Origin: Planctomycetota bacterium
Lineage (GTDB): Bacteria > Planctomycetota > PLA2 > JAEUHO01
Direction of reading: 5' to 3'
NCBI GenBank assembly: GCA_030066775.1
Contig: JASJAY010000001.1
Span: forward strand, 4,612 to 68,611
DNA length: 64,000 bases
Shown: one piece after another, positions 8,370 to 56,210 of the stretch
Numbering within the stretch: position 1 is the first letter of the stretch
How the letters are laid out: every line of letters starts with the position of its first letter
Notes under the pieces: generated by a model
Database searches by the model: none
Seen by the model: only the letters and a program-made list of their open reading frames with translations
Told to the model about the DNA's origin: nothing
Translations under genes and position numbers: made by a program

Positions 8370-9851
8370 ATGACGGACGTCTCCCTCGAACCGGGGCAGG
8401 CCATTGACGCGGTATGGTCGGAGCGCGCGCGCGGGCTCTCGCCCGCCCAGCAGGACGCGCTCCTCGAGCGGGCGGACGCGATCCGCAACGAGCCCGAGGG
8501 TGCCGCGTCGGCGTACGGGTGCTACCTGGCGCTGCAAGAGCGCCTCCACCTCTCTCGGCCGGCGGATGTAGAGCGCACGATCTGGCTCTTCGAGCACATG
8601 GAGGTCGCCGATCCCAGCCTCATGCTCCTCGCTCGCGCTGCCGCCGAGACGACGGCGTGCACGGAGCTCTGGTTCCAGGGGCGGCTGCGGGTCGCGCAGA
8701 TCGAGCGCGAGCAGGGCCACATCCGCGCGGCCGAGAAGCTCCTGTTCGTGCTCCTGGGGGACGTCGCGGGCCAAGACGAGCGCTGGGAGGCGCTCGTGGC
8801 GGCGAACCTGTCGCTCTGCTTGCGACACCTCAACCGCGAGGTCGAGGCGCTCGTCCTCTGCCGGCGAGCCCTGGCCGGATTCGAGCGGCTCGGCGACCGG
8901 CGTCGGGCGATCCGCGTGCGTCAGGTGGTCCAGAACATCCTCATCTCGTTCCATGACTGGCGGCGCTATGAGCGTGAGCGCGAACGGCTCGAGCGCGACA
9001 TCCCCGAGCTCGCCGAAGCGGAACGTCGTCAGGTCGACATGTCGGACCTGATGATGCGCGCCCAGGCCGCCTTCGAGCGCAACGCGTTCGACACGGCGCT
9101 CGTTCACCTCGACGAGGTCGAGGCGCGGTTCTCGCATCGTCGGACTTGGGCCCTCGTGACGCGCGCGTTCGTTCTCGCCGTGATGGGGCGTGGCAGCGAG
9201 GCCCTGGCCGTGCTCGGCGCCGACCCCGCCGAGCACGAGTACGGTCCGCAGTACTCGATTCAGAACGACACCACGCGAGTCCTCTGCGCCCTCCAGAGCC
9301 AGGCGCCCGACGAGGTCGAGAAGACGGCGACCGCGTTCCTGGATCGCCTCGAGGCGGGGACCGAACCGCCGGGCAACCGGATCACCATGCTCCTGCACGT
9401 GGCCCGTGAGCTGGGGCGCCTGGGGGAGCACGGCGCGCTCGCCAAGCGCGCCTACGACCTCGCGGCAGCCGCGATCGTCGAGCGCATCCTCGAGGTCGAT
9501 CGTTTCGCCCGCGAACGGCCTACGCTCATCGAGCTCTCGGCCGAGGAGCGCAGCACGCTCGGCGAGCTGCGTATCCGCCTGCTCGCCCGGCACGAGGAGC
9601 TCATGCGTGCCGTTGGTCGGCTGCTCTTGGAGGCGCGTGCCCGCGGGGAGCCGATGCCCTCGGAGTGGTACGGCAGCGAAGGTCTGCTCTGCGTCTGTGC
9701 CTGGTGCGGGCGCATGAAGCGCGGGGACGACGGCTGGGTGCCGGTGGGGGCGTTCATCCCCGACGACAGCACGCTGCAGCTCACGCACGACATCTGTCCC
9801 GACTGCTATCACGAGCGAGCCCAGAACGGCAACGCCACCAAGTCGTCCTGA
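8370..9851 (+). CDS. hypothetical helical-repeat (TPR-like) protein with C-terminal CxCxxC...CxxC motif
   Basis: Track ORF 8298..9851. ATG 8370 is preferred, but 8298 remains possible. Mostly alpha-helical repeats. The C-terminus reads LLCVCAWCGRMKRGDDGWVPVGAFIPDDSTLQLTHDICPDCY. Confidence 0.6.
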   Translation: MTDVSLEPGQAIDAVWSERARGLSPAQQDALLERADAIRNEPEGAASAYGCYLALQERLHLSRPADVERTIWLFEHMEVADPSLMLLARAAAETTACTELWFQGRLRVAQIEREQGHIRAAEKLLFVLLGDVAGQDERWEALVAANLSLCLRHLNREVEALVLCRRALAGFERLGDRRRAIRVRQVVQNILISFHDWRRYERERERLERDIPELAEAERRQVDMSDLMMRAQAAFERNAFDTALVHLDEVEARFSHRRTWALVTRAFVLAVMGRGSEALAVLGADPAEHEYGPQYSIQNDTTRVLCALQSQAPDEVEKTATAFLDRLEAGTEPPGNRITMLLHVARELGRLGEHGALAKRAYDLAAAAIVERILEVDRFARERPTLIELSAEERSTLGELRIRLLARHEELMRAVGRLLLEARARGEPMPSEWYGSEGLLCVCAWCGRMKRGDDGWVPVGAFIPDDSTLQLTHDICPDCYHERAQNGNATKSS

Positions 9852-11077: not shown

Positions 11078-11155
11078 CGGGGCGTGGCGCAGATTTGGTA
11101 GCGCGCCTGAATGGGGTTCAGGAGGTCGCTGGTTCGAGTCCAGTCGCCCCGACCA
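11078..11155 (+). tRNA. tRNA-Pro (anticodon GGG), CCA encoded
   Basis: Hand-folded cloverleaf. Acceptor CGGGGCG/CGCCCCG; D arm GCGC-AGATTTGGTA-GCGC. Anticodon arm CCTGA-ATGGGGT-TCAGG with GGG at 11113-11115. T arm GCTGG-TTCGAGT-CCAGT, discriminator A, then CCA. Confidence 0.9.
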
Positions 11156-43825: not shown

Positions 43826-44974
43826 TCACTCGTACCGGAAGCGTCGCACGGCCAGCCAGCCGATGGCGAGTGCGCCGAGGGCCAGCAGCAGTGTGTTGCC
43901 GACGGCGCTGGCGGGACCGGCGCGGTAGTTCACGAGCTGGTGCATCGCATCCATGGCCCAGCCCGTGGGCAAGACGGTCGCGAGGCTCTGCATCGCGGGC
44001 GAGGTGACCTCGATCGGCCACCAGCAGCCGCCGAGCGCCGCCAGGACGTTGGCGGTCAGCACGCCCAGGCCGATGGCCTGCGACGCCGTGCGCGCGATGC
44101 AGCCGAGCAGCAGGCCGAGAGACGCGCAGAAGGCGGCCCAGGCGACGAGCACGAGCGCCACCATCAGCACGTCCGGGCCCCAGTCGAGGCCGAAGATCAG
44201 GGCGCCGAAGAGCATGGCTACGGCCACCTGCACGAGTGCCAGGAGCATGCGGCCGGCCCACTTGCCGAGCACGATCTCCCCGCGCGAGATCGGGGTGGAG
44301 GCCAGTCGACGCAGCAGGCCTTGCTCGCGCTCCACGACGAGCGTGGACGTGCCCGACGTGAGGAGCACGATCATCGTGAACATCACGAGGATGCCGGGGA
44401 TCGCCTGGTCGAAGCCGGTCGGGATCCTGCGCCGCTCGCCGGCGGGCCGGCTTACGAGCGTCAGCGCACGGGGCTTCGCCGCCAGCCGCGCGAACGACGC
44501 GGGCGTCGGCTCTTCACCCGCCTCGGCCGCCGCGACGACGTCCGCGAGCAGCGTGTACACGGCGCGCACGAAGCGCACCTCGTCCAGCTGGCTCGAGAGG
44601 TCGACCTCCCGGCGCTCGAGGGAGAGCGGGGTCGGCGTGCCGCCGAGGACGCGCTCCGTAAACCCGTCCGGGATCTGCAGACGACGGCCGTGCGATGCGA
44701 ACGTCGTCTCGTCCTCGGTGCGAACGACCTCGAACCCGTTCTCGTCGAGCCGCCGCTCGAGCTCGGCCACCAGGAAGCCCGGCGAGCCCTCCGCGCGCAC
44801 GGCAAGCGGGCGCTTCGCCTCACCGCCGCTCGTGAAGCCGCCGCCGCCGATGACCGTGCCGATGAAGTAGAAGAACACGATCGGCATCACGAAGATCCAC
44901 AGCAGCGCCTCCTTGCCGCGGATCGCGTAGAGGAAGTCCTTCGTGGCGATGAAGCGGGCGCGCTCGAAGCTCAT
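43826..44974 (-). CDS. ABC-2 type transporter permease
   Basis: Track ORF 43826..45496 trimmed to ATG 44974, which overlaps the upstream stop as ATGA. Large periplasmic loop followed by five to six TM helices. Confidence 0.8.
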   Translation of the reverse strand: MSFERARFIATKDFLYAIRGKEALLWIFVMPIVFFYFIGTVIGGGGFTSGGEAKRPLAVRAEGSPGFLVAELERRLDENGFEVVRTEDETTFASHGRRLQIPDGFTERVLGGTPTPLSLERREVDLSSQLDEVRFVRAVYTLLADVVAAAEAGEEPTPASFARLAAKPRALTLVSRPAGERRRIPTGFDQAIPGILVMFTMIVLLTSGTSTLVVEREQGLLRRLASTPISRGEIVLGKWAGRMLLALVQVAVAMLFGALIFGLDWGPDVLMVALVLVAWAAFCASLGLLLGCIARTASQAIGLGVLTANVLAALGGCWWPIEVTSPAMQSLATVLPTGWAMDAMHQLVNYRAGPASAVGNTLLLALGALAIGWLAVRRFRYE

Positions 44975-46209
44975 GACGCCCTCGCAAACCGCTTCGACAG
45001 CGTGCGCGATGCGAGCGCGAACAAGAGCAGGCCAACCGCGAGCATGCCCAGCAGCGGGACCAAGAGCTCCGTGGGCGCGGTGCGTTCGAGCAAGAGGTCC
45101 TTGAGCTGCGCGACGGACCATCCGTTGGGCGTGAAGCGGCCGACGGCGGCAAGGCCCTTCGGCATCATCTCGGCGGGGAAGAAGCTGCCGCCGACCATCA
45201 AGAGCGGGAACGCGATCGCGTTGGTGAGGATCTGTCCGGCGCGCGGGGTCCGGGTGGCCATCTGGATCCAGCACATGAGCACGAGCAGCACGCCGCCCGT
45301 CACCGCGCACCAGACGACGGCCACCGGCAGCACGCGCCACGGCAGATCGAGATAGAACGTGCCGATCGCCATCAGTACGAGGGCGAGCACGCCCGCAATG
45401 ACGACGCCCGCCATCAGCTTGCCGGCGAAGAGGCCGCCGACGCCGCCCGGCGCGCTGACCGCACGGCGCAGCGTGCCCATGCTGCGTTCCCGCCACATGT
45501 CCTCGCTCAGACCCGTCGCGAAGAAGAGGAGAGCCATGAGCACGATGCCCGGCAGGAAGAGCACGGACACGTCGACGCTCGGCGCCTGTGCGTCGGTCGC
45601 CGTGTCGGCCTCCAGCACGGGCGGAAGCAGATAGCGCTCGACGCGGCGGAAGACGCCGTTCACCGCCACGCTGATGCGCGTGACCTCTTCGTCGCTCGGC
45701 GTGGCTTCGAGTCCGCCCATCTCGTCGACGATGCCGCGGATGTCATCGCCGACGATCCGCTGCATGTAGAAGACGACGTCGACGAGCACCCGGAGCGTCT
45801 CCTCGGCGATCTGGGGCAGGATCGACTGTGCGGGGTTGGTAACGAGCTCGAGCTCCGACGGCGTGTCCTCGAGGACCGCCTGTCCGAAGCCCTCGGGGAT
45901 CAAGAGCAGGGCGCTCGCCTCGCCTTCGTCGAGTCGTTTGCGACCTTCGTCCAGCGGGACGCGCTCGCTGTCGAGCACGCGCAGCTCCTCGCGCGCGAGC
46001 AGCCCCACGAAGAGCTCGCTCAAGAAGCTCCCGTCCTCGTCGGCAACGAGGAGCTTTGCGCGCGGCGGGGCCTCGCCGACGTCGCCGAACGCGAGCGTGA
46101 TGAGCGCGCCGATCAGGATCGGGATGCCCAGCCACAGCGCCAGCGCCATCGGATCCTTCGCTTGCCGCGACAGGTCCTTCGCGGCGGCGTGGAGCGCCAT
46201 GCGGCTCAC
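44971..46209 (-). CDS. ABC-2 type transporter permease
   Basis: 412-aa ORF. GTG 46209 overlaps the ATPase stop as GTGA; ATG 46200 is the alternative. Same topology as the paralogous downstream permease. Confidence 0.8.
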   Translation of the reverse strand: MSRMALHAAAKDLSRQAKDPMALALWLGIPILIGALITLAFGDVGEAPPRAKLLVADEDGSFLSELFVGLLAREELRVLDSERVPLDEGRKRLDEGEASALLLIPEGFGQAVLEDTPSELELVTNPAQSILPQIAEETLRVLVDVVFYMQRIVGDDIRGIVDEMGGLEATPSDEEVTRISVAVNGVFRRVERYLLPPVLEADTATDAQAPSVDVSVLFLPGIVLMALLFFATGLSEDMWRERSMGTLRRAVSAPGGVGGLFAGKLMAGVVIAGVLALVLMAIGTFYLDLPWRVLPVAVVWCAVTGGVLLVLMCWIQMATRTPRAGQILTNAIAFPLLMVGGSFFPAEMMPKGLAAVGRFTPNGWSVAQLKDLLLERTAPTELLVPLLGMLAVGLLLFALASRTLSKRFARAS

Positions 46210-47135
46210 TCGCGCAGCTCCTTGCCCGTCAGCTTGATGAAGAGCGTCTCGAGGCTGGGCTCGGTCAGCGTGGTCTGGCGGATCTCGCTGCCCGCTGTGG
46301 TCAGCGCATCGAAGAGCGCCGGCAGCCGAGACGAGGCGTCGCGTAGCGCAAGCCGCAACGCGTCCGGCTCCACCTGCACGACCTCGACGTCGTCCACGGC
46401 GCCGAGCGCCTGCTCCACGGCGGCCGCATCGAAGTGCCCGGTGAGCTGCAGCAGGTCCCGCTCGCCGACCTGGCCGCGCAGCTCCTCGAGGGTGCCGTTC
46501 GCGATGAGCTTGCCGCGGTCGATGATCGCGAGGCGGTCGCAGAGCTGCTCCGCCTCCTCCATGTAGTGCGTCGTGTACAGCACCGTCGTGCCGTCGGCCA
46601 CGAGCGTCTTGACCATCTCGAACAGGCGCACGCGCGACTGGGGGTCCACGCCCACCGTCGGCTCGTCGAGCAGGACGACCTTGGGCCGGTGCACGATCGC
46701 GCAGCCGAAGTTGATGCGGCGCTTCATGCCGCCGCTGTACTGGCTCACCGGTTCCTTGGCCCGATCCGCGAGCCCCGTCGTGGCGAGCACGTCGCGCACG
46801 CGCGTCGTCAACGTGCTGCCGCGCAGCCCGTATGCCGCACCCCAGAACCGCAGGTTCTCGGTTGCGGAGAGATCCTCATAGAGCGCCATCTCTTGGGGTA
46901 CGACGCCTAACTGCTCGCGTGCGGCGCGACGCTCCACGACCACGTCCTTGCCGAGCACGCGCACGCGGCCGGCCGTGGGCTCGAGCAGACCGGAGATGCA
47001 GCCGATCGTGGTCGATTTGCCCGCACCGTTGGGTCCAAGCAGTCCGAAGATCTCGCCGGGTGCCGCCGTGAAGCTCACGTCGTCGACGGCGACGAAGCTG
47101 CCGTAGTGCTTCTCGAGTCGCTCGACGTCGATCAC
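46206..47135 (-). CDS. ABC transporter ATP-binding protein
   Basis: 309-aa ORF with GTG start after GGGGAGGG. Walker A GPNGAGKST, signature YSGGMKRR, Walker B VVLLDEP. Confidence 0.9.
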   Translation of the reverse strand: MIDVERLEKHYGSFVAVDDVSFTAAPGEIFGLLGPNGAGKSTTIGCISGLLEPTAGRVRVLGKDVVVERRAAREQLGVVPQEMALYEDLSATENLRFWGAAYGLRGSTLTTRVRDVLATTGLADRAKEPVSQYSGGMKRRINFGCAIVHRPKVVLLDEPTVGVDPQSRVRLFEMVKTLVADGTTVLYTTHYMEEAEQLCDRLAIIDRGKLIANGTLEELRGQVGERDLLQLTGHFDAAAVEQALGAVDDVEVVQVEPDALRLALRDASSRLPALFDALTTAGSEIRQTTLTEPSLETLFIKLTGKELRE

Positions 47136-47342
47136 CGTCGGCCCTCCCCGTGGCGCCTGGATCCTCGTTCGAACGAGAGCCTAGCAAAGCCCGAGAGCGC
47201 CGACCGTCCGGAATGACCGAACTCGTTTGCTCCATGGCGTCACGCGCTTGATCCGTTCATGCAGCAGCGCTAAGGTCGGCGCCCCGCGACATCGGGATGG
47301 GGGCTTTGATGTCGCAGTGCACGGGTTCGAGGGAGGGTCGTC

Positions 47343-48734
<1,392 letters not shown>

Positions 48735-49016
48735 TCCGACCGCGACCCGTTGTGTCCGGCCATTCGAGCCCACGCGGCAAGGTTCTGTTTCGAGATGCGG
48801 GCTAGGTGAAATTACGCAAAACGCGTGTAAGCACGCGGTCTGTGGAAACCCCATGGAGAAGCCTGCGGAGTCGCGTGGGCATTTGCGTTCCCACCAAGTG
48901 TTCCTGGGTTCCCAAAGTCGGAACCCCAACGCGCGAACGAGGTTGTGTGCACTGTGCACGAGCAATCCACAATTTGGGTGGGGTGTGTCGTGCTCACATG
49001 AGTCGCGTGCGCATTG

Positions 49017-49033
49017 TGCACAAGCGAAGTGCA
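49017..49033 (+). promoter_or_regulatory. candidate enhancer (UAS): TGCAC-N7-GTGCA inverted repeat
   Basis: TGCACAAGCGAAGTGCA is a perfect 5+5 inverted repeat with the 17-bp geometry of NtrC-type sites. It lies about 90 bp upstream of the -24 element. Nearby are tandem GTGCAC hexamers (48947-48952, 48954-48959) and AAGTGCR copies (49027, 49044, 49093). An A7 tract (49088-49094) sits between the UAS and the promoter. Confidence 0.45.
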
Positions 49034-49113
49034 TCGGGGCGCAAAGTGCGTGAAAACGTGGTTAACGGTCGATTGGCGGCCGCTCTCAAAAAAAGTGCGA
49101 AGTGGAGGAGCAT

Positions 49114-49129
49114 TGGTCCAGCCGTTGCT
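49114..49129 (+). promoter_or_regulatory. candidate sigma-54 (-24/-12) promoter
   Basis: TGGTCCAGCCGTTGCT has GG at 49115-49116 and GC at 49127-49128, the exact spacing of TGGCACG-N4-TTGCW. The -12 box TTGCT matches consensus. The -24 flank TGGTCC is imperfect. Confidence 0.55.
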
Positions 49130-49139
49130 CTCTACCTCC

Positions 49140-50437
49140 CGTCCGAAACGGACAACGATCTTTGACAGCACTGGCGATCGGACGAGACGACTAGTTGTGC
49201 ACCGATGAGTGGCGGTGCCGGGCAGCGGGCCCGGGATCTGCTGCTGCGCAACGGCGGGAAGTCGTGGATCGAGCGCACTTGTCAGACCCGACGCGCGCTG
49301 ACGAAGCGAAGGGGCAGCAATGTCCTGGAGCGGAAGCGGAGCGCGGACGTGATGACAAGGCGGAGCTGGTGGCAACACCGGCGCCCGGCGTGAACCACAT
49401 CCAATTCGTTGGCCTTCCTTTCCGCCGTAGCGGACGGAGCATCGTCTGCTGAAAGGTGAGAAACCTCACGAGAGCTGGGGGTCCGGAGACGGACCACCCG
49501 ACTCGCTCGAGCCCGAGACCCTGAGACCCGGATGGATAGGGACGTCACCCCATCCAAGGGTGCGAGGGGAGGCTCCGCGACCAAAGCGCGGGCCAGGTCG
49601 AGCGGGAGCACGCTCTGGAGAGGAACGGAACCTCAAGACGGGATCGGCGGCCGGAGCCGACGGGGGCTTGCCCCTGGACGCCCCGGTGCTGAACGGACTC
49701 GCCGCGGGAACAAGGCCCTGAAGGCGACTGCCGGCTAAAGCTCCACACCTCCGGGTGGCGGGGCGGCAGCTGGCGGCAACGGCAAGAGGGCAGGGACTCC
49801 GAGAGGAGCACCCATCGCGGTCGAGGGGAACCCCGTGAAGAGTGAAGCCCATGGGCGCTCCAGCGCGCTTGACGTGCTGGGAGGCGTGCGGTGCCGAAAG
49901 GTGCCGGGGGCCGCAAGGCCTAGTGGTGTACGCCGCGAAGGAGGTAGCCAAACCTCGCACGTGGCACGCGACGGCGGAGGGATCCGCCGTCATGACGCGG
50001 GACCACCGCGCTGACACTGTGCCGTAGGGCAGACAAAGTCCAGGAGAGGAAGCGAGGCTCCGAGCCCGGAGCGTGGCGCAAGCCGCGTGAACGGGGACGG
50101 GTCACGCCGACTCGCGAATGTCGTCCTCTGAAGGGGCGCGAAAGCGCATGGAGGGTCGCTCGAAGGCTTCGGCCGACGGGCAGCTCCACGATCGAAGACC
50201 CGAAGGGCGTTGAACGTCGAACGGGTAGGGCGGAACCCATAGCCGTCCTAGAGCGTGGAGCGTGTGTCCTCGAAGTGCCGCGGAACCCCATGAGAGGCAG
50301 CGAAGCCGGGCCGCAAGGTCCGGGGGAGCAGACACTGCGACTCGAAAACCTCTGGAGGACCGGAACAACTGGTCATCGACTCCGTCGTCAGGCTTCATCG
50401 GCCCGGGGCGTGGGCAACCACGCTCCGGGCTCTTTTC
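49140..50437 (+). ncRNA. candidate large structured RNA of unknown family (boundaries approximate)
   Basis: No credible ORF in the interval. Perfect helices are capped by GAGA (49480-49495), CTTG (49663-49674), GCAA (49909-49920), GCAA (50072-50087), GAAA (50136-50147), TTCG (50165-50174) and GCAA (50306-50323). The 3' end is terminator-like. The 5' end is inferred from the sigma-54 promoter. Confidence 0.4.
50401..50437 (+). terminator. intrinsic-terminator-like hairpin at the end of the candidate RNA
   Basis: GCCCGGGGCGTGG-GCAA-CCACGCTCCGGGC forms a 13-bp stem with one G-T pair, followed by TCTTTTC. Confidence 0.5.
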
Positions 50438-50506
50438 AATTGTGGACGCATCCGAGATCGAAACGCGCATGGATGCGGTACCGATGGGTGAGCACCATTG
50501 GCGATA

Positions 50507-50536
50507 GGGCGCCCACAAGGGGCGCCCCCTACTACC
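50507..50536. repeat. 30-nt palindromic element, left copy of an inverted pair
   Basis: GGGCGCCCACAAGGGGCGCCCCCTACTACC contains the local hairpin GGGCGCCC-ACAAG-GGGCGCCC. It is the reverse complement of 50634-50663 at 28 of 30 positions. Confidence 0.7.
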
Positions 50537-50633
50537 ACATGTCATCGCGGTGGGGGGCACCACGCCGACGTCCAACGCGCCGATCGTCGTGAACGGCACG
50601 ACACACTTTCGTCGGCCATGCGTGATCGCGGGC

Positions 50634-50663
50634 GGTAGTAGGGGGCGGCCCTTGTGGCCGCCC
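50634..50663. repeat. 30-nt palindromic element, right copy of an inverted pair
   Basis: GGTAGTAGGGGGCGGCCCTTGTGGCCGCCC contains the local hairpin GGGCGGCC-CTTGT-GGCCGCCC. Confidence 0.7.
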
Positions 50664-50751
50664 TGGCGCCATGGGTGGCCTGCAACCCCGGGTTCCCATA
50701 CGCGTTTCGTCGGGTTGATGTTCGATCCACAGTGGCGTGGATCAACGCGCC

Positions 50752-51783
50752 CTACACGATGCCGAGGTCTTCGGACTCGTCCTTGTAGGCGCGACGCATG
50801 AGGGAGGTGACGACCTCGAGGGGCTCCTTGCCCTCGTTGATGACGAGGTACATCTCCTCGGTGATCGGACCCACGAGACCGTGCTTGTGGATGAGATCGC
50901 GGATTGCGCCCACGCTCTTCGCACCCTCGGCGACCTGCTGCATGCTGGCCATGATGTCCGTGACCTGCTCGCCGCGTCCGATGCGCTCGCCGAAGGTGCG
51001 GTTGCGGCTGGCCTTCGAGTAGCAGGTCGTCATCAGGTCGCCCAGACCGCTGAGTCCGAAGAAGGTCTCGCGCTTGCCGCCGAGCGCGACGCCGAGTCGC
51101 GCCATCTCGAGCAGCCCGCGGGAGACCAACGCCGCCTTCGCGTTGACCCCCAGGCGCATGCCGTCGCACATGCCGGCCGCCAGCGCGATGACGTTCTTGA
51201 GCACGCCGCCGAGCTCGACGCCGATGAGGTCGGGATTCGAGTAGGCGCGGAACGCATCGCCGGAGAGCGTCGCCTGGATGCGTCGCGAGAGATCGAGCGA
51301 GGCGCTCGACACGACCGTGGCCGCCGGCTTGCCCTCCGCAATCTCGCGCGCGATGTTCGGACCGGACAGGACCGCGATCGTGTGCTTCGGTCCGGCCACC
51401 TCCGCGAGCACCTGGGTCGGACGCATCAGCGTGCCCTGCTCGAGGCCCTTCGAGACGCTCACGATCGGCAGGTCCTCGGGGACGCTCTGCGCATGCTGCG
51501 CCCACACGTCGCGCAGGAACGTGGTGGGCACCGCCGAGATCAGCAGGTCCGCGCCGTCGACCAGGTCGGTGAAGCGGCTGCAGACCCGCACACCCTCGGG
51601 TAGGTCGAAGCCGGGGAGGTAGCGCGGGTTGTGCCGGCTCTCCTCCATCAGCGCCGCGTAGTGCGCGTCGTACGACCAGATCGCGACGTCGTGGCCCGCA
51701 GCGCGGAGCAGCATCGCCAGCGCGGTGCCCCAGCCGCCGTCGCCCACGACCACGATCTTCTCGAACGGTTGGACGGCGTTCAC
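50752..51783 (-). CDS. gpsA: NAD(P)H-dependent glycerol-3-phosphate dehydrogenase
   Basis: Track ORF 50752..51912 trimmed to GTG 51783 after GGGGAGGG. Rossmann motif VVVGDGGWGTALA. Full-length GpsA-like sequence (GPNIAREIA, LKNVIALAAGM). Confidence 0.9.
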   Translation of the reverse strand: MNAVQPFEKIVVVGDGGWGTALAMLLRAAGHDVAIWSYDAHYAALMEESRHNPRYLPGFDLPEGVRVCSRFTDLVDGADLLISAVPTTFLRDVWAQHAQSVPEDLPIVSVSKGLEQGTLMRPTQVLAEVAGPKHTIAVLSGPNIAREIAEGKPAATVVSSASLDLSRRIQATLSGDAFRAYSNPDLIGVELGGVLKNVIALAAGMCDGMRLGVNAKAALVSRGLLEMARLGVALGGKRETFFGLSGLGDLMTTCYSKASRNRTFGERIGRGEQVTDIMASMQQVAEGAKSVGAIRDLIHKHGLVGPITEEMYLVINEGKEPLEVVTSLMRRAYKDESEDLGIV

Positions 51784-51811
51784 CGGCCCTCCCCGTGCGG
51801 AGCCGCGGGCG

Positions 51812-52501
51812 TCAGAGCTTCTGATCGGCGTCGCCGACCCGGCGCTCCGTGCCCCGCAGCACGCGCTGGATGTTGCTGCGATGACTCCACACGACGAAGC
51901 CCGCCATGACAAGCAAGAAGGCGAAGACGACGAAGCGTGCGTGGAAGGTGTCGGCGCCGTTGTCGAGCCAGTACGACAGCGGCATCATCACCATCGCCGC
52001 GATCGAGCCCATGCTCATGTAGCGGGTGATGCCCAGGATCATGCCCCACGCCCCGAGGCCGGCGAGGGACGAGAGCGGCGCGAGGGCCGTGACGACCCCG
52101 AACATGGTCGCGACGCCCTTGCCGCCGCGGAAGCGCAGATACGGCGTGAACACGTGGCCGAAGATCGCGGCCGTGCCGGTGATGACCTGCAGCGCGAGGC
52201 CTGTGCTCTCCGAGTCGAGCACGCGGCCGACGGCCGCGGCGGCCTCCACCGAGAAGAGCGCGACGAAGAGTCCCTTGCCGAAGTCGAGCGCGAACACGAC
52301 GACGAACATCGCGATCGAGCGCCAGCCGGACCACTGCCGGGCGCAGTTCGTGGCGCCCACGCCGCCGCTCCCGACCTTGCGCAGATCCACGCCCTTGAAC
52401 GTGCGCGCCATGATCCAGCCGAACGGAATGCCCCCGATGAGGTACGCAGCAACGGCGAGGAGGATCTCGGCGGTCGGCGTTCCCATGCTGATGAAGGCCA
52501 T
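51812..52501 (-). CDS. plsY: glycerol-3-phosphate acyltransferase PlsY
   Basis: Track ORF 51812..52651 trimmed to ATG 52501. Motifs GSGGVGATN and FRGGKGVAT. Five to six TM helices. Confidence 0.9.
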   Translation of the reverse strand: MAFISMGTPTAEILLAVAAYLIGGIPFGWIMARTFKGVDLRKVGSGGVGATNCARQWSGWRSIAMFVVVFALDFGKGLFVALFSVEAAAAVGRVLDSESTGLALQVITGTAAIFGHVFTPYLRFRGGKGVATMFGVVTALAPLSSLAGLGAWGMILGITRYMSMGSIAAMVMMPLSYWLDNGADTFHARFVVFAFLLVMAGFVVWSHRSNIQRVLRGTERRVGDADQKL

Positions 52502-52674
52502 GCGGGCTCCTGTGTCCGTCGGGGGCGGACCGTCGTCAAGATACCCCTGACGTGACCGTTCGGCAGCCTCCAGGCCCAGTGCGTGAACACGACGGCCATT
52601 CCGGCCGGCCGATGGTGCCTGACACGGCGCGACGCTAGGCTCACACGCCACCTCAGGGAAGGAGACCCCGGCCC

Positions 52675-54642
52675 ATGCCGCCCGCGCATCCGATCCGGCT
52701 CGGCGTCGACACGGGCGGCACCTTCACCGACGTCGTCTGGACGGGGCCGTCGGGGCGCGGGGTGAAGAAGCTCGCGTCCACGCCCGACGATCCGGCCCGG
52801 GCCGTGCTCGACGGCGTGGCCGCGGTCACGGGCGCGCTCCCTGCCGGTACGCCGTACACGGTGCACCACGGAACGACCGTGGGCACGAACGCCGTACTGA
52901 CGCGCGGCGGGGCGCGGGTCGTGCTGGTGACCACCCGCGGCTTCGAGGCGCTGCTCGCCGTCGGGCGTGGTCAGCGCGAGGGACTGCACCGCATGGCCCC
53001 GCGTCGCGTCGCGCCGTTGGTCGAGGTCGCGAATTGCGTGGGCGCAGAGGAGCGCATGGGCGCCGACGCGCGTCCGGTCCAGTCGCTGACGTCGGCTGCC
53101 CTCGATCGGCTCGCCGCCGCGGTTGAACGCCGCCGGCCGGAGGCGGTGGCGGTGTGCCTGCTGCATGCGCCGCGCAACGCCGCACACGAGAGGCGGATCG
53201 TGAAGCGATTGCGCGACGTGTGCCCCTACGTGTACGCATCGGCCGCGAGCTCGCCCGACCCGCGCGAGGTGGAGCGTGCGACGACCACGGTGCTCGATGC
53301 CTACGTCGCGCCGCTGGTCGCGCGCTACGTCGCGTCGCTGGCCGACGCGCTGCCGCCGGACGCGCTGACGATCCTGCGTTCCGACGGCGGTCGCATGGCC
53401 GTCACCGAGGTGCGCGCGTCGCCCGTGCGGACGCTGCTCTCCGGACCGGCGGCCGGCGTTGCGGCAGCCCGCGTCCTCGCCGCGCGACACGGCTTGCCGC
53501 GCGTGCTCACGTTCGACGTCGGCGGGACCAGCACGGACGTCGCCTGGGTCGAGGGCGGCGCGGCGCCGCTCGGCTCCGAGCTGCACGTCGGCCCCTTCGC
53601 CGCGGGCGTGCCGTCCGTGCCCATCGAGACCGTCGGGGCGGGCGGCGGGAGCGTGGTGCGCGTCGACAGCGGTGGTGCGCTTCGCGTCGGCCCCGAGAGC
53701 GCCGGGGCGGCGCCGGGTCCCGCCTGCTACGGACGCGGGGGGCCCTTCGCGTTGACCGATGCGTGGCTCCTGCTCGGACGCATCCCCGACGCGCTGCTGG
53801 GCGGCGACTTCGCGCTCGACCGCGCCGCCGCACGCCGTGCCGCGGCACGCGTCGCGAAGGCCGCGGGCCTCAGCGTGCCGGCCCTCTGCCGCGGGGCCGT
53901 CGCCGTGGCGGCGACCACCACCGCACGCGCGCTGCGCCTCGCGTCCGCCGCCCGCGGCCACGATCCGCGCGATGCGGCGCTGCTCGCCTTTGGCGGTGCG
54001 GGTCCCGTGCTGGCGTGCGACACGGCCGATCAGCTCGGCATGCGCGACGTGCTGGTGCCCACCGATCCGGGCACGTTCGCCGCATCCGGTGCGCTGGCCG
54101 CCCCGCTGCGCGCGGACGCGTCTGCGCTGGCGCCCGCGAAGGGTGGCGAGACGGCGCTCGACCGCGTCGGCAAGCGGCTACGGCGCGAGGTGGAGACGCG
54201 GCTCTTGGCCGAGGGGGCGCGCGGGCCCTTGCGCTTCGTCGAGGAGGTCGACGCGCGCTACGCGGGGCAGGCCTTCGAGGTGACGGTCGCACGCGACGGG
54301 TGGCGCGAGCGGTTCCACGACCGCCACGAGGCGCGATACGGCTTCGCCGACGCGCGCCGCCCGGTCGAGTGCGTGCGCCTGCGTGTCCGCGCGGAAGGCG
54401 ACGACCATCCGGGCGCGCGGCCCTCGGACGCGCACGTGGCCGCGCCGCGCCACGTGCGGACGCGGCGCCTTGCGCGGGATGCGAAGGGGGTCGGCACCTG
54501 TGCCCGCAGCACCTTGTCGCCGGGCGATCGCGTGCGCGGGCCCGCGCGCATCGACGAGGTGTCCGGGACGAGCTTCGTGCCTGACGGATGGAGCGCCGTG
54601 TGCCTCGGCGACGCCGCGCTGCGGATCGGGAGGACGCGATGA
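52675..54642 (+). CDS. hyuA: hydantoinase/oxoprolinase family protein, A subunit
   Basis: 655-aa ORF with ATG after GGAAGGAG. N-terminus RLGVDTGGTFTDVV is typical of hydantoinase A. Confidence 0.85.
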   Translation: MPPAHPIRLGVDTGGTFTDVVWTGPSGRGVKKLASTPDDPARAVLDGVAAVTGALPAGTPYTVHHGTTVGTNAVLTRGGARVVLVTTRGFEALLAVGRGQREGLHRMAPRRVAPLVEVANCVGAEERMGADARPVQSLTSAALDRLAAAVERRRPEAVAVCLLHAPRNAAHERRIVKRLRDVCPYVYASAASSPDPREVERATTTVLDAYVAPLVARYVASLADALPPDALTILRSDGGRMAVTEVRASPVRTLLSGPAAGVAAARVLAARHGLPRVLTFDVGGTSTDVAWVEGGAAPLGSELHVGPFAAGVPSVPIETVGAGGGSVVRVDSGGALRVGPESAGAAPGPACYGRGGPFALTDAWLLLGRIPDALLGGDFALDRAAARRAAARVAKAAGLSVPALCRGAVAVAATTTARALRLASAARGHDPRDAALLAFGGAGPVLACDTADQLGMRDVLVPTDPGTFAASGALAAPLRADASALAPAKGGETALDRVGKRLRREVETRLLAEGARGPLRFVEEVDARYAGQAFEVTVARDGWRERFHDRHEARYGFADARRPVECVRLRVRAEGDDHPGARPSDAHVAAPRHVRTRRLARDAKGVGTCARSTLSPGDRVRGPARIDEVSGTSFVPDGWSAVCLGDAALRIGRTR

Positions 54643-56210
54643 GTCGTCGCGACGACCCGGTGGCGCTGGCGCTCACGCGCGACTTGCTCGAGAGCGTGGC
54701 CGAGGAGATGGCGGCCGTGTGCATCCGCACCGCCGTGTCCCCGAACGTGAAGGACCGCCGCGACCTGAGCGCGGCCGTCTTCGATGCCAAGGGCGTGATG
54801 GTCGCCCATGCCGCGCACATCCCCGTGCACCTCGGCGCGATGCCCCTGTCCGTGCGCGCCGTGCTCGACACGTGCCCGCTCGAGCCCGGGGACGTCGCGC
54901 TCGTGAACGACCCGTACGCCGGCGGCACGCACCTGCCCGACATCACGGCCGTGCGCGCCGTCTTCGATCCCGCGACCCAACGCCGTGCGTTCCTCGTCGC
55001 GGTGCGCGCGCACCATGCCGACGTCGGCGGCGCGGTTCCCGGCTCGATGGCGCCGGCCGACGACGTGTACGCCGAGGGCCTGCGCATCCCGCCGGTCCGC
55101 TGGGTCGTGAACGAGACGCCGGATCCCGGCGTCACCTCCCTGCTGCTCTCGAACATGCGCGACGCGGACGAGCGGCGCGGGGACTTGGCCGCCCAGGCCG
55201 GCGCGCTGCGGCTCGGCGAACGCCGCTTGCGCGAGCTCGCCGCGGGCGCCGGCGGCCTCACGCGATTGGCGCGACGCGGCGCTTCGCTCGTGCGCTACGC
55301 CGGGCGGTTAGCCGCCGCGGCGCTCGAGCGATTGGCCGACGGCAGCGCGAAGGCGCGGCTCGACCTGGAGGTCGACGGCGTCGACGGCAAGCCCGCGCGC
55401 GTCGCCGTGCGACTCACCAAGCAAGGCACGCGTCTGACCGTCGACTTCAGCGGGACGACAGGGCCGGTCGGCATGGGCTTGAACGCGCCACGCGCCGTCA
55501 CCCAGAGCGCCGTCTACTACTTCGTGCGCTGCCTCTGTCCGGACGGGACACCGACGAACGACGGGCTGATGGAGCATGTCGACGTCGTGGTGCCCGACGG
55601 CTGCCTGCTGGCCGCACGCCCGCCCGCGCCGGTCGCGGGCGGCAACGTCGAGACGAGTCAGCGCGTCGTCGACGCCCTCTGGCTCGCAGCGGCGCGGCTG
55701 TGGCCGGGCCGGGTGCCCGCGCCCGGCTGCGGCACGATGTCGAACTGGACCTTCGGCCGTGCGCCCGACGGGCCGCCGATGCCCTCGTACTACGAGACGA
55801 TCCCCGGTGGGGCCGGCGGGGGTCCCGACGGGGCCGGCGCCGACGCGATCCAGCAGCACATGACGAACACGCGCGGCACGCCGGTCGAGGTGCTCGAGGC
55901 GCGCTGGCCGGTGCGCGTCGAGCGGCTGGCCCTCCGGCCGCGGAGCGGCGGAGCCGGCAAGCAGGCGGGCGGGCGCGGCGTGATCCGCGAGGTCCGCTTC
56001 CTCGAACCGGCCGTCGTCTCGCTGATGATGACGCGCCACGCCACGCCCCCGCCGGGCGTCGCCGGCGGCAAGCCCGGACGCGCGGGCCGCGTGACGCTCG
56101 TGCGCGGCGGTCGGGCCCGCCGCCTCGACCCCCGAGCGCGCGTGGACATCCGCCCCGGCGACGTGCTCCGGATCGAGACCCCGGGTGGCGGTGGTTGGGG
56201 GCGCCCTTGA
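54639..56210 (+). CDS. hyuB: hydantoinase/oxoprolinase family protein, B subunit
   Basis: Track ORF 54588..56210 trimmed to ATG 54639, which overlaps the hyuA stop as ATGA. SPNVKDRRDLSAAVFD and NDPYAGGTHLPD are typical of hydantoinase B. Confidence 0.85.
   Translation: MSRRDDPVALALTRDLLESVAEEMAAVCIRTAVSPNVKDRRDLSAAVFDAKGVMVAHAAHIPVHLGAMPLSVRAVLDTCPLEPGDVALVNDPYAGGTHLPDITAVRAVFDPATQRRAFLVAVRAHHADVGGAVPGSMAPADDVYAEGLRIPPVRWVVNETPDPGVTSLLLSNMRDADERRGDLAAQAGALRLGERRLRELAAGAGGLTRLARRGASLVRYAGRLAAAALERLADGSAKARLDLEVDGVDGKPARVAVRLTKQGTRLTVDFSGTTGPVGMGLNAPRAVTQSAVYYFVRCLCPDGTPTNDGLMEHVDVVVPDGCLLAARPPAPVAGGNVETSQRVVDALWLAAARLWPGRVPAPGCGTMSNWTFGRAPDGPPMPSYYETIPGGAGGGPDGAGADAIQQHMTNTRGTPVEVLEARWPVRVERLALRPRSGGAGKQAGGRGVIREVRFLEPAVVSLMMTRHATPPPGVAGGKPGRAGRVTLVRGGRARRLDPRARVDIRPGDVLRIETPGGGGWGRP

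Follow-up and report, generated by a model that had tools for sequence, protein, structure and literature searches.

What is transcribed from the 2 kb of DNA that separate a sigma-54 activator gene from gpsA in a genome of the phylum Planctomycetota, and how is it controlled? The locus lies in a stretch of 64,000 nt (contig JASJAY010000001.1 of assembly GCA_030066775.1), hereafter called the window, to which all coordinates refer unless a locus or contig is named. An earlier note on this DNA described, at 48940–49141 and directly downstream of the activator gene, a sigma-54 type (−24/−12) promoter preceded by an enhancer of NtrC geometry, regarded this arrangement as unusual and proposed that the product is an RNA or a very small peptide. 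A direct reading of the window letters found all of the motifs that it listed, each where it had been placed. Our comparative analysis indicates that 48940–49141 very probably controls a gene whose product is a large, structured non-coding RNA, and that it consists of the upstream activating region and the sigma-54 promoter of this gene.

The activator gene and the DNA downstream of it

The two genes that border the region are as follows.

47343–48734, + strand: sigma-54 activator gene (bacterial enhancer-binding protein, 463 aa), assigned by its Pfam domains and GAFTGA motif
50752–51912, opposite strand: gpsA, the next real gene past the activator gene

The + strand of the 2 kb between them is rich in purines. 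The periodicity of G+C at third codon positions (GC3), which reaches 0.9–0.97 in one phase in the flanking genes, is absent from 48735 to ~50750, and no ORF (open reading frame) conserved in length or frame was found across the family, in agreement with the earlier description of this DNA as ORF-free. With no conserved ORF and no codon periodicity, protein-coding and small-peptide products were rejected; of the two products proposed, only the RNA, which has a covarying structure, was retained.

We fetched eight orthologous activator loci and widened the comparison of the promoter and its upstream boxes to 15 genomic loci including the window. All eight fetched loci carry the RNA element. By blastn, window positions 49156–50437 are conserved in seven of them with 65–70% identity over 0.6–1 kb, and L088 gives short matches only. 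The activator gene is followed by 1.6–2.6 kb without a credible gene in seven of the eight, and gpsA, plsY and hydantoinase genes lie downstream in most. The exception is L085, in which a 699-aa HEAT-repeat gene (2.1 kb, L085 7647–9746) is located between the activator gene and the RNA. Because the promoter and boxes remain with the RNA in this locus, the regulatory region is part of the RNA gene and not of the 3′ end of the activator gene. Other genes are found downstream in L081 and L086, where the activator–RNA pair is nevertheless kept. The activator gene and the RNA gene behave as a two-gene module. The contigs that encode the RNA are chromosomal and syntenic and reach 2.2 Mb, and the window has a single copy. 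An nhmmer search found the RNA beside none of 80 paralogous activators from many phyla, which were collected by pattern matches in the AAA+ core.

The −24/−12 promoter and the upstream boxes

The regulatory region contains the following elements.

48888–48895 (TTCCCACC) and 48909–48916 (TTCCCAAA), + strand: two YCCCAY boxes, far upstream of the promoter
48954–48973, + strand: enhancer boxes 1 and 2, GTGCAC-N6-TCCACAAT (GTCCAC-N6-TCCACAAT in relatives, with TCCAC 11 bp apart)
49013–49021, + strand: enhancer box 3, ATTGTGCAC (ATTGTGGAG in relatives), at about −100 and in the orientation opposite to boxes 1 and 2
49088–49094: A7 tract, a possible intrinsic bend between enhancer and promoter
49102–49107, + strand: promoter-proximal GTGGAG box, 7 bp upstream of the −24 TGG
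49114–49129, + strand: sigma-54 type −24/−12 promoter, TGGTCCAGCCGTTGCT (TGGTCC-AGCCG-TTGCT), present in 15 of 15 loci

In the promoter, GG is at 49115–49116 and GC at 49127–49128, which is the spacing of TGG-N8-TTGCW. The earlier note was right on this spacing, which can be read directly and is kept in each of the 15 orthologous loci at a fixed place upstream of the RNA. The element has the form TGG(C/T)CC-N5-TTGC(T/A) in the major clades and (C/T)GGCACG-N4-(G/A)TGC in L087-like clades; L162 has TGGC. In the 11 loci measured, the C of the −12 box lies 31–52 nt from the helix that closes the RNA, so that the start would lie 19–40 nt before this helix. Transcription is predicted to begin at ~49140, ~12 nt past the −12 GC, and would depend on RpoN.

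Upstream of the promoter, four boxes are conserved. Counted from the T of the −24 TGG, two of them read TCCAC (−160 and −149) and two read GTGGA (about −100 and −12), and these positions are kept within ~2 bp though overall identity is <70%. Boxes 1 and 2 are both positionally conserved within ~2 bp in 11 of the 15 loci. The GTGGA of box 3 is found at −97 to −101 in nine loci and at −110 in L086, with the near-matches GTTGA and GGGGA in three more, and the proximal GTGGA is found at −11 or −12 in nine of the 15, each of which belongs to a major clade. A second set, the YCCCAY boxes (e.g. TTCCCAT and GTCCCAT), is found in most of the 15 loci near −228 and −205, and another copy occurs near −125. 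The TCCAC/GTGGA boxes are most likely the sites of the activator. Boxes resembling TCCACAAT are not enriched in the window (16 versus 15.5 expected). The A7 tract, which had been pointed out as lying where bending would favour enhancer–promoter contact, is present, and in about half of the related loci the corresponding position is taken by a T-rich tract (e.g. AATTTTTTTC, GATTTTTCTC and CTTTTTTCG) amid ~70% G+C; the T- or A-rich tract sits at about −20 to −35.

As a separate observation, ATTGTGGA at 50439–50446, right after the T-run of the RNA terminator, is identical to the box 3 consensus. It is probably a chance occurrence, because the other loci do not have it.

A large structured RNA without an Rfam family

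The RNA gene has the following parts.

49140–50437, + strand: predicted primary transcript of ~1.3 kb, from the start predicted by the promoter to the end of the terminator T-run
49140–49153, + strand: 5′ leader hairpin, CGTCCGAAACGGAC, followed by the conserved leader GATCTTTGACAGCA (consensus CTCTTTGAAAAACAAGCA)
49167–50395, + strand: mature structured RNA, ~1229 nt in the window and 1063–1093 nt in relatives
49171–49182, + strand: 5′ strand of the closing helix, CTGGCGATCGGA, pairing with 50381–50391
49229–49237, + strand: 9-nt hairpin loop, GCCCGGGAU, with the palindrome CCCGGG (stem 49223–49228 with 49238–49243)
50381–50391, + strand: 3′ strand of the closing helix, TCCGTCGTCAG, a few nucleotides beyond which most RNA-sized contigs end
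50400–50437, + strand: intrinsic terminator, a 14-bp G+C-rich hairpin followed by CTCTTTTC

The nhmmer profile of the family matches the window copy with E = 1e-181. A consensus structure obtained with RNAalifold from 83 distinct sequences, mutually 57–90% identical, comprises 331 pairs in 48 helices, with 91% canonical cells and double changes in 256 pairs. Compensatory cells number 3149, compared with 928 on average (1011 at most) in 100 column shuffles and with 670–750 when the partners were slid by 1–3 columns. A separate covariation check was made on one domain (49845–50033) with 26 diverse sequences and 43 pairs: 94.9% of the cells are paired versus 85.9% after shuffling, double changes occur in 25 pairs versus 12.5, the slid controls give 34–43%, and none of 500 shuffles attained any of these measures. 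The closing helix shows compensatory variants (CUGAUGA/UCAUCAG and CCGACGA/UCGUCGG; the window has a G–U pair), and the terminator stem covaries in the nine-locus alignment. In the other loci, the hairpin at the leader position varies in sequence, whereas the leader that comes after it is conserved.

G–U and U–G pairs together make up 9.5% of the paired cells, whereas A–C and C–A together make up 2.2%. Because the former far exceed the latter, the RNA lies on the + strand, and these counts, together with the orientation of promoter and terminator, rule out an RNA from the minus strand. The GTGCAC at 49197–49202, which had been listed as a further copy just past the predicted start, is inside the RNA, where GCACC forms the 5′ strand of a covarying helix (GCACC/GGUGC); it is not an operator.

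Recurrent elements of the structure are several GNRA-type tetraloops and 10–11 copies of a 3 × 3 internal loop, 5′-ANG-3′ opposite 5′-GRA-3′, between short conserved helices. Kink-turns, the 11-nt receptor and UAA/GAN motifs were tried as identities of this loop and rejected, since the 3 × 3 register does not fit. Compared with most members, the window RNA has lineage-specific insertions at ~49250–49400 (~100–150 nt) and ~49870–49905 (~35 nt), the second site also being occupied by an insertion in L086; the two sites mark peripheral, expandable hairpins.

The loop at 49229–49237 carries a perfect palindrome of 6–8 nt in 67 of the 83 sequences (CCCGGG in 27, CCUAGG in 27, GCCCGGGC in 12 and ACCCGGGU in one), and CCUAGG appears in two separate clusters. 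The other 16 sequences, from L087-like clades, have a shorter, different hairpin there. The dimerisation loop of HIV-1 resembles this pattern. The palindromic loop is a candidate symmetric kissing loop, and homodimerisation is plausible by analogy, because adjacent loop nucleotides cannot pair within one chain and because palindrome switching of this kind was used to argue that OLE and GOLLD RNAs form symmetric intermolecular kissing loops (PMC12286853).

The RNA itself is new, being kilobase-sized and without an Rfam family. Searches against Rfam 15 at E up to 1 gave no match in window positions 44000–56000, which sets aside group II introns, ribozymes, RNase P, tmRNA and 6S RNA, and seven other members gave only a sub-threshold match to DUF805b. 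The literature searched contained no description of such an RNA. An association with phages was dropped, as viral contigs gave no match to the RNA. Two sequences, L112 (1412 nt) and L158 (1067 nt, of lower G+C), have ~47% identity to the family (nhmmer E = 3e-14 and 2e-26, respectively) and may represent a distant branch, which suggests that the family is broader than the clades sampled.

Transcript-sized contigs and a possible circular form

A degenerate pattern matching the conserved block in all nine sequences retrieved 91 contigs from the collection of the Joint Genome Institute (JGI). Seventy-eight of them are 1004–1189 nt long (median 1069), and 74 of these end at both RNA ends: their first nucleotides fall at or slightly within 5′-CUGACGAACGGA and their last just past UCCUUCGUCAG-3′, two stretches that are complementary and covary. 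About 20 contigs reach into the leader, the longest by 44 nt before the closing helix. This agrees with the predicted start-to-helix distance of 19–40 nt in 11 loci, though contig ends are not mapped 5′ ends; ~10 contigs run into the terminator. None of the RNA-sized contigs has a −24/−12-like motif upstream. These contigs look like assembled transcripts of an abundant RNA, because DNA contigs would not break at both gene ends in dozens of samples. Three contigs have unrelated sequence at the RNA 5′ end, namely L177 (1–410, including the 5′ end of an 18S rRNA and AT-rich sequence), L149 (1–43) and L125 (1–120), and these chimeras suggest that the libraries were derived from RNA.

Head-to-tail junctions were found in seven of the 91 contigs. 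Six are circularly permuted, with overlaps at the two termini that are identical and a period of 1063–1093 nt (L112, imperfect and ~1063; L118; L127; L154; L157; and L178). In the last five, which show the closing helix, the junction (e.g. ...GUCAGGCUU|AGCACUGACG...) joins a 3′ end a few nucleotides past the closing helix to a 5′ end a few nucleotides before it, with neither promoter nor terminator between them. The seventh, L171, has a terminal overlap of 9 nt only and a different junction that includes the terminator stem. By analogy with these junctions and the contig ends, the mature ends in the window were placed at ~49167 and ~50395.

These junctions raise the question of whether the mature RNA is covalently circular in vivo, being cut beside the closing helix and then ligated, which would be compatible with the promoter and RNA gene proposed here. 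In favour are the six permuted contigs and the L171 junction; the five junctions that show the closing helix are free of promoter and terminator sequences and come from several clades. However, 74 of the 78 RNA-sized contigs are linear with the same breakpoint, which would be unexpected for a mostly circular molecule, and the L171 junction differs from the others and contains the terminator stem. In addition, template switching of the reverse transcriptase between ends juxtaposed by the helix, or rare chimeric reads of an abundant RNA, would give the same junctions, and the junctions may be artefacts because chimeras with unrelated sequence do exist at the RNA 5′ end (L177, L149 and L125). We therefore regard a circular form as possible, though on balance doubtful.

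A comparison with viroid-like elements is pertinent here. Obelisks are apparently circular RNA assemblies of ~1 kb from metatranscriptomes (PMC10827157). The present RNA likewise gives apparently circular assemblies of ~1.06–1.09 kb in metatranscriptome-like data. Unlike Obelisks and viroids, it has a chromosomal DNA template with a promoter, a terminator and synteny, it is not rod-like, it has neither an ORF nor a ribozyme match, and its assemblies are mostly linear.

A variation at the 3′ end was also noted. Thirteen contigs end in G or C after GTCAGGC, eight with …GTCAGGCG (L109, L123, L129, L132, L133, L148, L156 and L179) and five with …GTCAGGCC (L141, L145, L169, L172 and L173), while every genomic locus reading GTCAGGC has T at this place (GGCTT or GGCTC). 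Non-templated addition, noise at assembly tips or lineage variation may account for these ends.

Known systems and the possible function of the RNA

The layout of activator gene, enhancer, promoter and RNA gene is of a known kind and not unusual as had been thought, because it is shared by cbrB–crcZ (PMC5113210) and nla19–pxr (PMC5568312). The crcZ gene is located directly downstream of cbrB and has a CbrB site and an RpoN promoter, and its ends can also be produced by processing (PMC5113210). Activator gene, binding site, −24/−12 promoter, non-coding RNA gene and terminator follow one another in the same order in cbrB–crcZ and in the locus analysed here. CrcZ is ~400 nt long, with A-rich Hfq/Crc motifs and little conserved tertiary structure. 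The present RNA differs in its size (1.06–1.23 kb), its 48 covarying helices, its phylum and the degenerate receiver of its activator, and no sequence or Rfam relation to CrcZ is seen. In Vibrio (luxO–qrr1) and enterobacteria (glrR–glmY), a sigma-54 activator gene likewise adjoins a sigma-54-dependent RNA gene; Qrr1 and GlmY are ~100–200 nt long and act by base pairing or as decoys, and no homology of the present RNA to either was detected. The pxr gene of Myxococcus lies downstream of the sigma-54 response regulator gene nla19 and has a predicted sigma-54 promoter, its RNA being 108 nt long with three stem-loops and restricted to myxobacteria (PMC5568312). The two loci are alike in layout and unlike in RNA size and phylum. 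An identity with Pxr, suggested by the order of a sigma-54 regulator gene and a dehydrogenase gene as at nla19–pxr, was rejected: the locus belongs to a metagenome-assembled genome (MAG) of Planctomycetota, Rfam gives no Pxr match and the element is ten times longer.

In size and structure, the RNA is closer to OLE, ROOL and GOLLD, which, like it, are >500 nt long, non-coding and of complex, covariation-supported structure. Its palindromic loop, which switches between CCCGGG and CCUAGG, has the signature described for OLE and GOLLD. It differs from them in having no match to an Rfam model, in its dedicated sigma-54 activator, in its chromosomal location and in being longer than GOLLD, the largest ornate class, of which 'many members exceed 800 nucleotides' (PMC12286853).

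Our best guess for the function, held with low confidence, is a scaffold or particle that self-associates via the palindromic loop. Such a scaffold would present the 10–11 copies of the internal-loop motif to a protein partner or to the tetraloops of the RNA itself. A rather unlikely alternative is a protein sponge like CrcZ or CsrB, whose repeats would titrate an RNA-binding protein once the activator is on. The locus layout is the same as that of cbrB–crcZ, the ANG/GRA loop is repeated 10–11 times, and in L082 an RRM-domain gene lies beside the RNA (9282–9578, minus strand; a 98-aa RRM_1 protein, encoded between the RNA and gpsA and peculiar to this locus, which may be an RNA-binding partner or a coincidence). 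However, sponges are short and loosely structured, whereas the 48 covarying helices and invariant junctions found here are nearer to those of ribozymes and ornate RNAs. The neighbourhood shows no conserved gene for a protein partner, and the repeated loops could equally be modules for tertiary contacts. We therefore favour, again with low confidence, a self-associating scaffold or particle over a simple protein sponge. A more far-reaching proposal would make the RNA a new ornate class larger than GOLLD, with its own sigma-54 activator, excised at the closing helix, at least partly circularised and forming dimers or particles via a palindromic kissing loop similar to a dimerisation initiation site (DIS). 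In this complete form, the proposal is unlikely to hold.

The activator and its probable sites

The activator matches Pfam Sigma54_activat (1e-69), AAA_lid_14 and HTH_8, a Fis-type helix-turn-helix (HTH) domain, and its GAFTGA motif, encoded at 47988, is seen in an alignment with ZraR. By these features, it is a genuine sigma-54 activator. An identical protein occurs in a Planctomycetota MAG, and ~90 full-length orthologues with 54–71% identity were found in metagenomes and MAGs, all three of the organism-named ones being labelled Planctomycetota. Residues 1–115 have no sequence match in Pfam or the PDB. The structural model of this N-terminal domain (predicted local distance difference test score, 84) has alternating strands and helices, and its best fold matches are receiver domains (E ~2e-3, template modelling score 0.5–0.65). 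The acidic pair past strand 1 is replaced by glycines (IVGxxG), and D64 at the end of strand 3 is almost invariant among the activators. These features suggest a degenerate receiver. Across the fetched loci, no kinase gene is conserved near the activator gene.

In the mechanism that we propose, this NtrC-family AAA+ protein would bind the TCCAC/GTGGA boxes at 48954–48973, 49013–49021 and 49102–49107, loop the DNA across the A-tract to the sigma-54 holoenzyme at TGGTCC-N5-TTGCT (49114–49129) and open the promoter. Transcription would then proceed from near 49140 to the intrinsic terminator at 50400–50437, and the primary transcript of ~1.3 kb would be trimmed to the RNA bounded by the closing helix (49171–49182 with 50381–50391). 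The conservation of promoter, boxes, RNA and terminator, the non-coding nature, strand and secondary structure of the RNA, and the transcript-sized contigs are direct observations; the pairing of protein and boxes, the dependence on rpoN, the exact start and the trimming enzymes are the parts that we infer.

Two further elements of the regulatory region were central to the earlier note.

48947–48959: tandem GTGCAC hexamers, GTGCACTGTGCAC
49017–49033: inverted repeat TGCAC-N7-GTGCA, the left arm overlapping box 3 and the right arm specific to the window

They gave rise to a model in which an NtrC-like dimer binds the 17-bp dyad and the tandem hexamers, as NtrC does at glnAp2. There, TGCACC-N5-GGTGCA sites lie ~100–140 bp upstream of a −24/−12 promoter. 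The dyad is perfect and rare (one match in the window versus 0.03 expected), and GTGCAC, with 37 copies in the window versus 21.5 expected, is locally clustered, four copies being within 48947–49202. The comparison of orthologous loci, which had been named as a test, separated these motifs from the promoter. The promoter is conserved, whereas the 14 other loci lack a dyad at the equivalent place and any counterpart of its right arm, of the first hexamer (48947–48952) or of the AAGTGCR repeats at 49028, 49045 and 49093. The three AAGTGCR copies are therefore not supported as regulatory repeats, and of the dyad only the left arm falls in a conserved box. At −160, the window has GTGCAC instead of GTCCAC, and at −98 it has GTGCA instead of GTGGA. 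For this reason, two of the reported GTGCAC hexamers, including the second of the tandem pair (box 1), are window versions of conserved boxes. The conserved TCCAC and GTGGA boxes are 11 and ~50 bp apart and contain no 17-bp dyad. The locus resembles NtrC/glnAp2 in having a distant enhancer with an A/T tract between it and the promoter, and the dyad would share its geometry by chance. It differs in having two direct TCCAC boxes 11 bp apart and two inverted boxes ~50 and ~140 bp further, including the promoter-proximal one. Binding of an NtrC-like dimer to the 17-bp dyad is thus improbable.

Several points weigh against our preferred reading, in which the activator acts through the TCCAC/GTGGA boxes on the −24/−12 promoter of the RNA gene. 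In the window alone, the promoter pattern is neither significant nor enriched: TGG-N8-TTGCW has three matches versus 1.4 expected, and 16 of 100 shuffles equal this number. The support for the promoter is therefore comparative. In the L087/L088 clade, the −12 box differs (GTGC) and the promoter-proximal GTGGAG box is absent. As two sets of conserved boxes exist, the assignment of the activator to TCCAC/GTGGA and not to YCCCAY is a guess. There is no rpoN gene in the window. The RNA origin of the contigs is presumed from their ends and the 18S fusion. Finally, as in cbrB–crcZ, read-through from the activator gene and processing could contribute to the RNA.

That the RNA arises mainly by such read-through from the activator promoter, with the −24/−12 match being incidental, is in our view highly improbable. 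This route exists for cbrB–crcZ (PMC5113210), it is the closing helix and not the start site that fixes where the mature RNA ends, and the terminator-like hairpin just past the activator gene (48861–48880) is weak. However, the −24/−12 element is retained in all 15 loci at a constrained distance, it stays with the RNA in L085 in spite of the intervening 2.1-kb gene, and the RNA-sized contigs reach no further than ~44 nt upstream of the closing helix.

The idea that the conserved stretch encodes a protein can hardly be entertained, since the ORFs placed there by gene callers (L081 7816–8697, L082 7403–8840, L084 2246–2794, L085 10169–10876 and L087 7901–8746) vary in strand (mostly minus), frame and length and have no Pfam match, GC3 phase is absent, indels shift the frame, variable columns are equally frequent in all three phases and covariation is extensive. 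Pairwise indels, most of which are 1 nt long, number 528 with a length of 1 mod 3, 145 with 2 mod 3 and 69 with 0 mod 3. Long spurious ORFs are common at 70% G+C, and the public hypothetical proteins of 182–293 aa are almost certainly mis-annotations due to the high G+C content.

Other features of the window

Between the RNA terminator and the stop codon of gpsA, a long imperfect inverted repeat is present at 50493–50677. Its arms of 57 nt are 79% complementary and 71 nt apart, and the extended hairpin has a predicted energy of −125.5 kcal/mol (z = −7.5). Short G+C-rich pieces of this repeat recur in L082. It could be an element similar to repetitive extragenic palindromic (REP) sequences or miniature inverted-repeat transposable elements (MITEs), a bidirectional terminator or another RNA. 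The sole match at the Rfam gathering threshold in the 64-kb window is a tRNA gene at 11078–11152.

Significance

To our knowledge, very few bacterial RNAs beyond rRNA exceed 600–800 nt with a conserved architecture (OLE, ROOL and GOLLD), and each of these three opened new structural biology. The RNA described here, which is longer than these, would rank with the largest structured RNAs of bacteria apart from those of the ribosome. It is apparently abundant in RNA data from many environmental samples and comes from a phylum whose RNAs have received little study. Its identification also corrects public annotation, as 'hypothetical proteins' in MAGs overlie the RNA gene. Sigma-54 promoters are normally silent until a signal arrives, and the dedicated activator and sigma-54 promoter offer an experimental handle that other large RNAs lack. 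If the more far-reaching proposal were true, Planctomycetota would possess an inducible, self-assembling RNA machine or scaffold.

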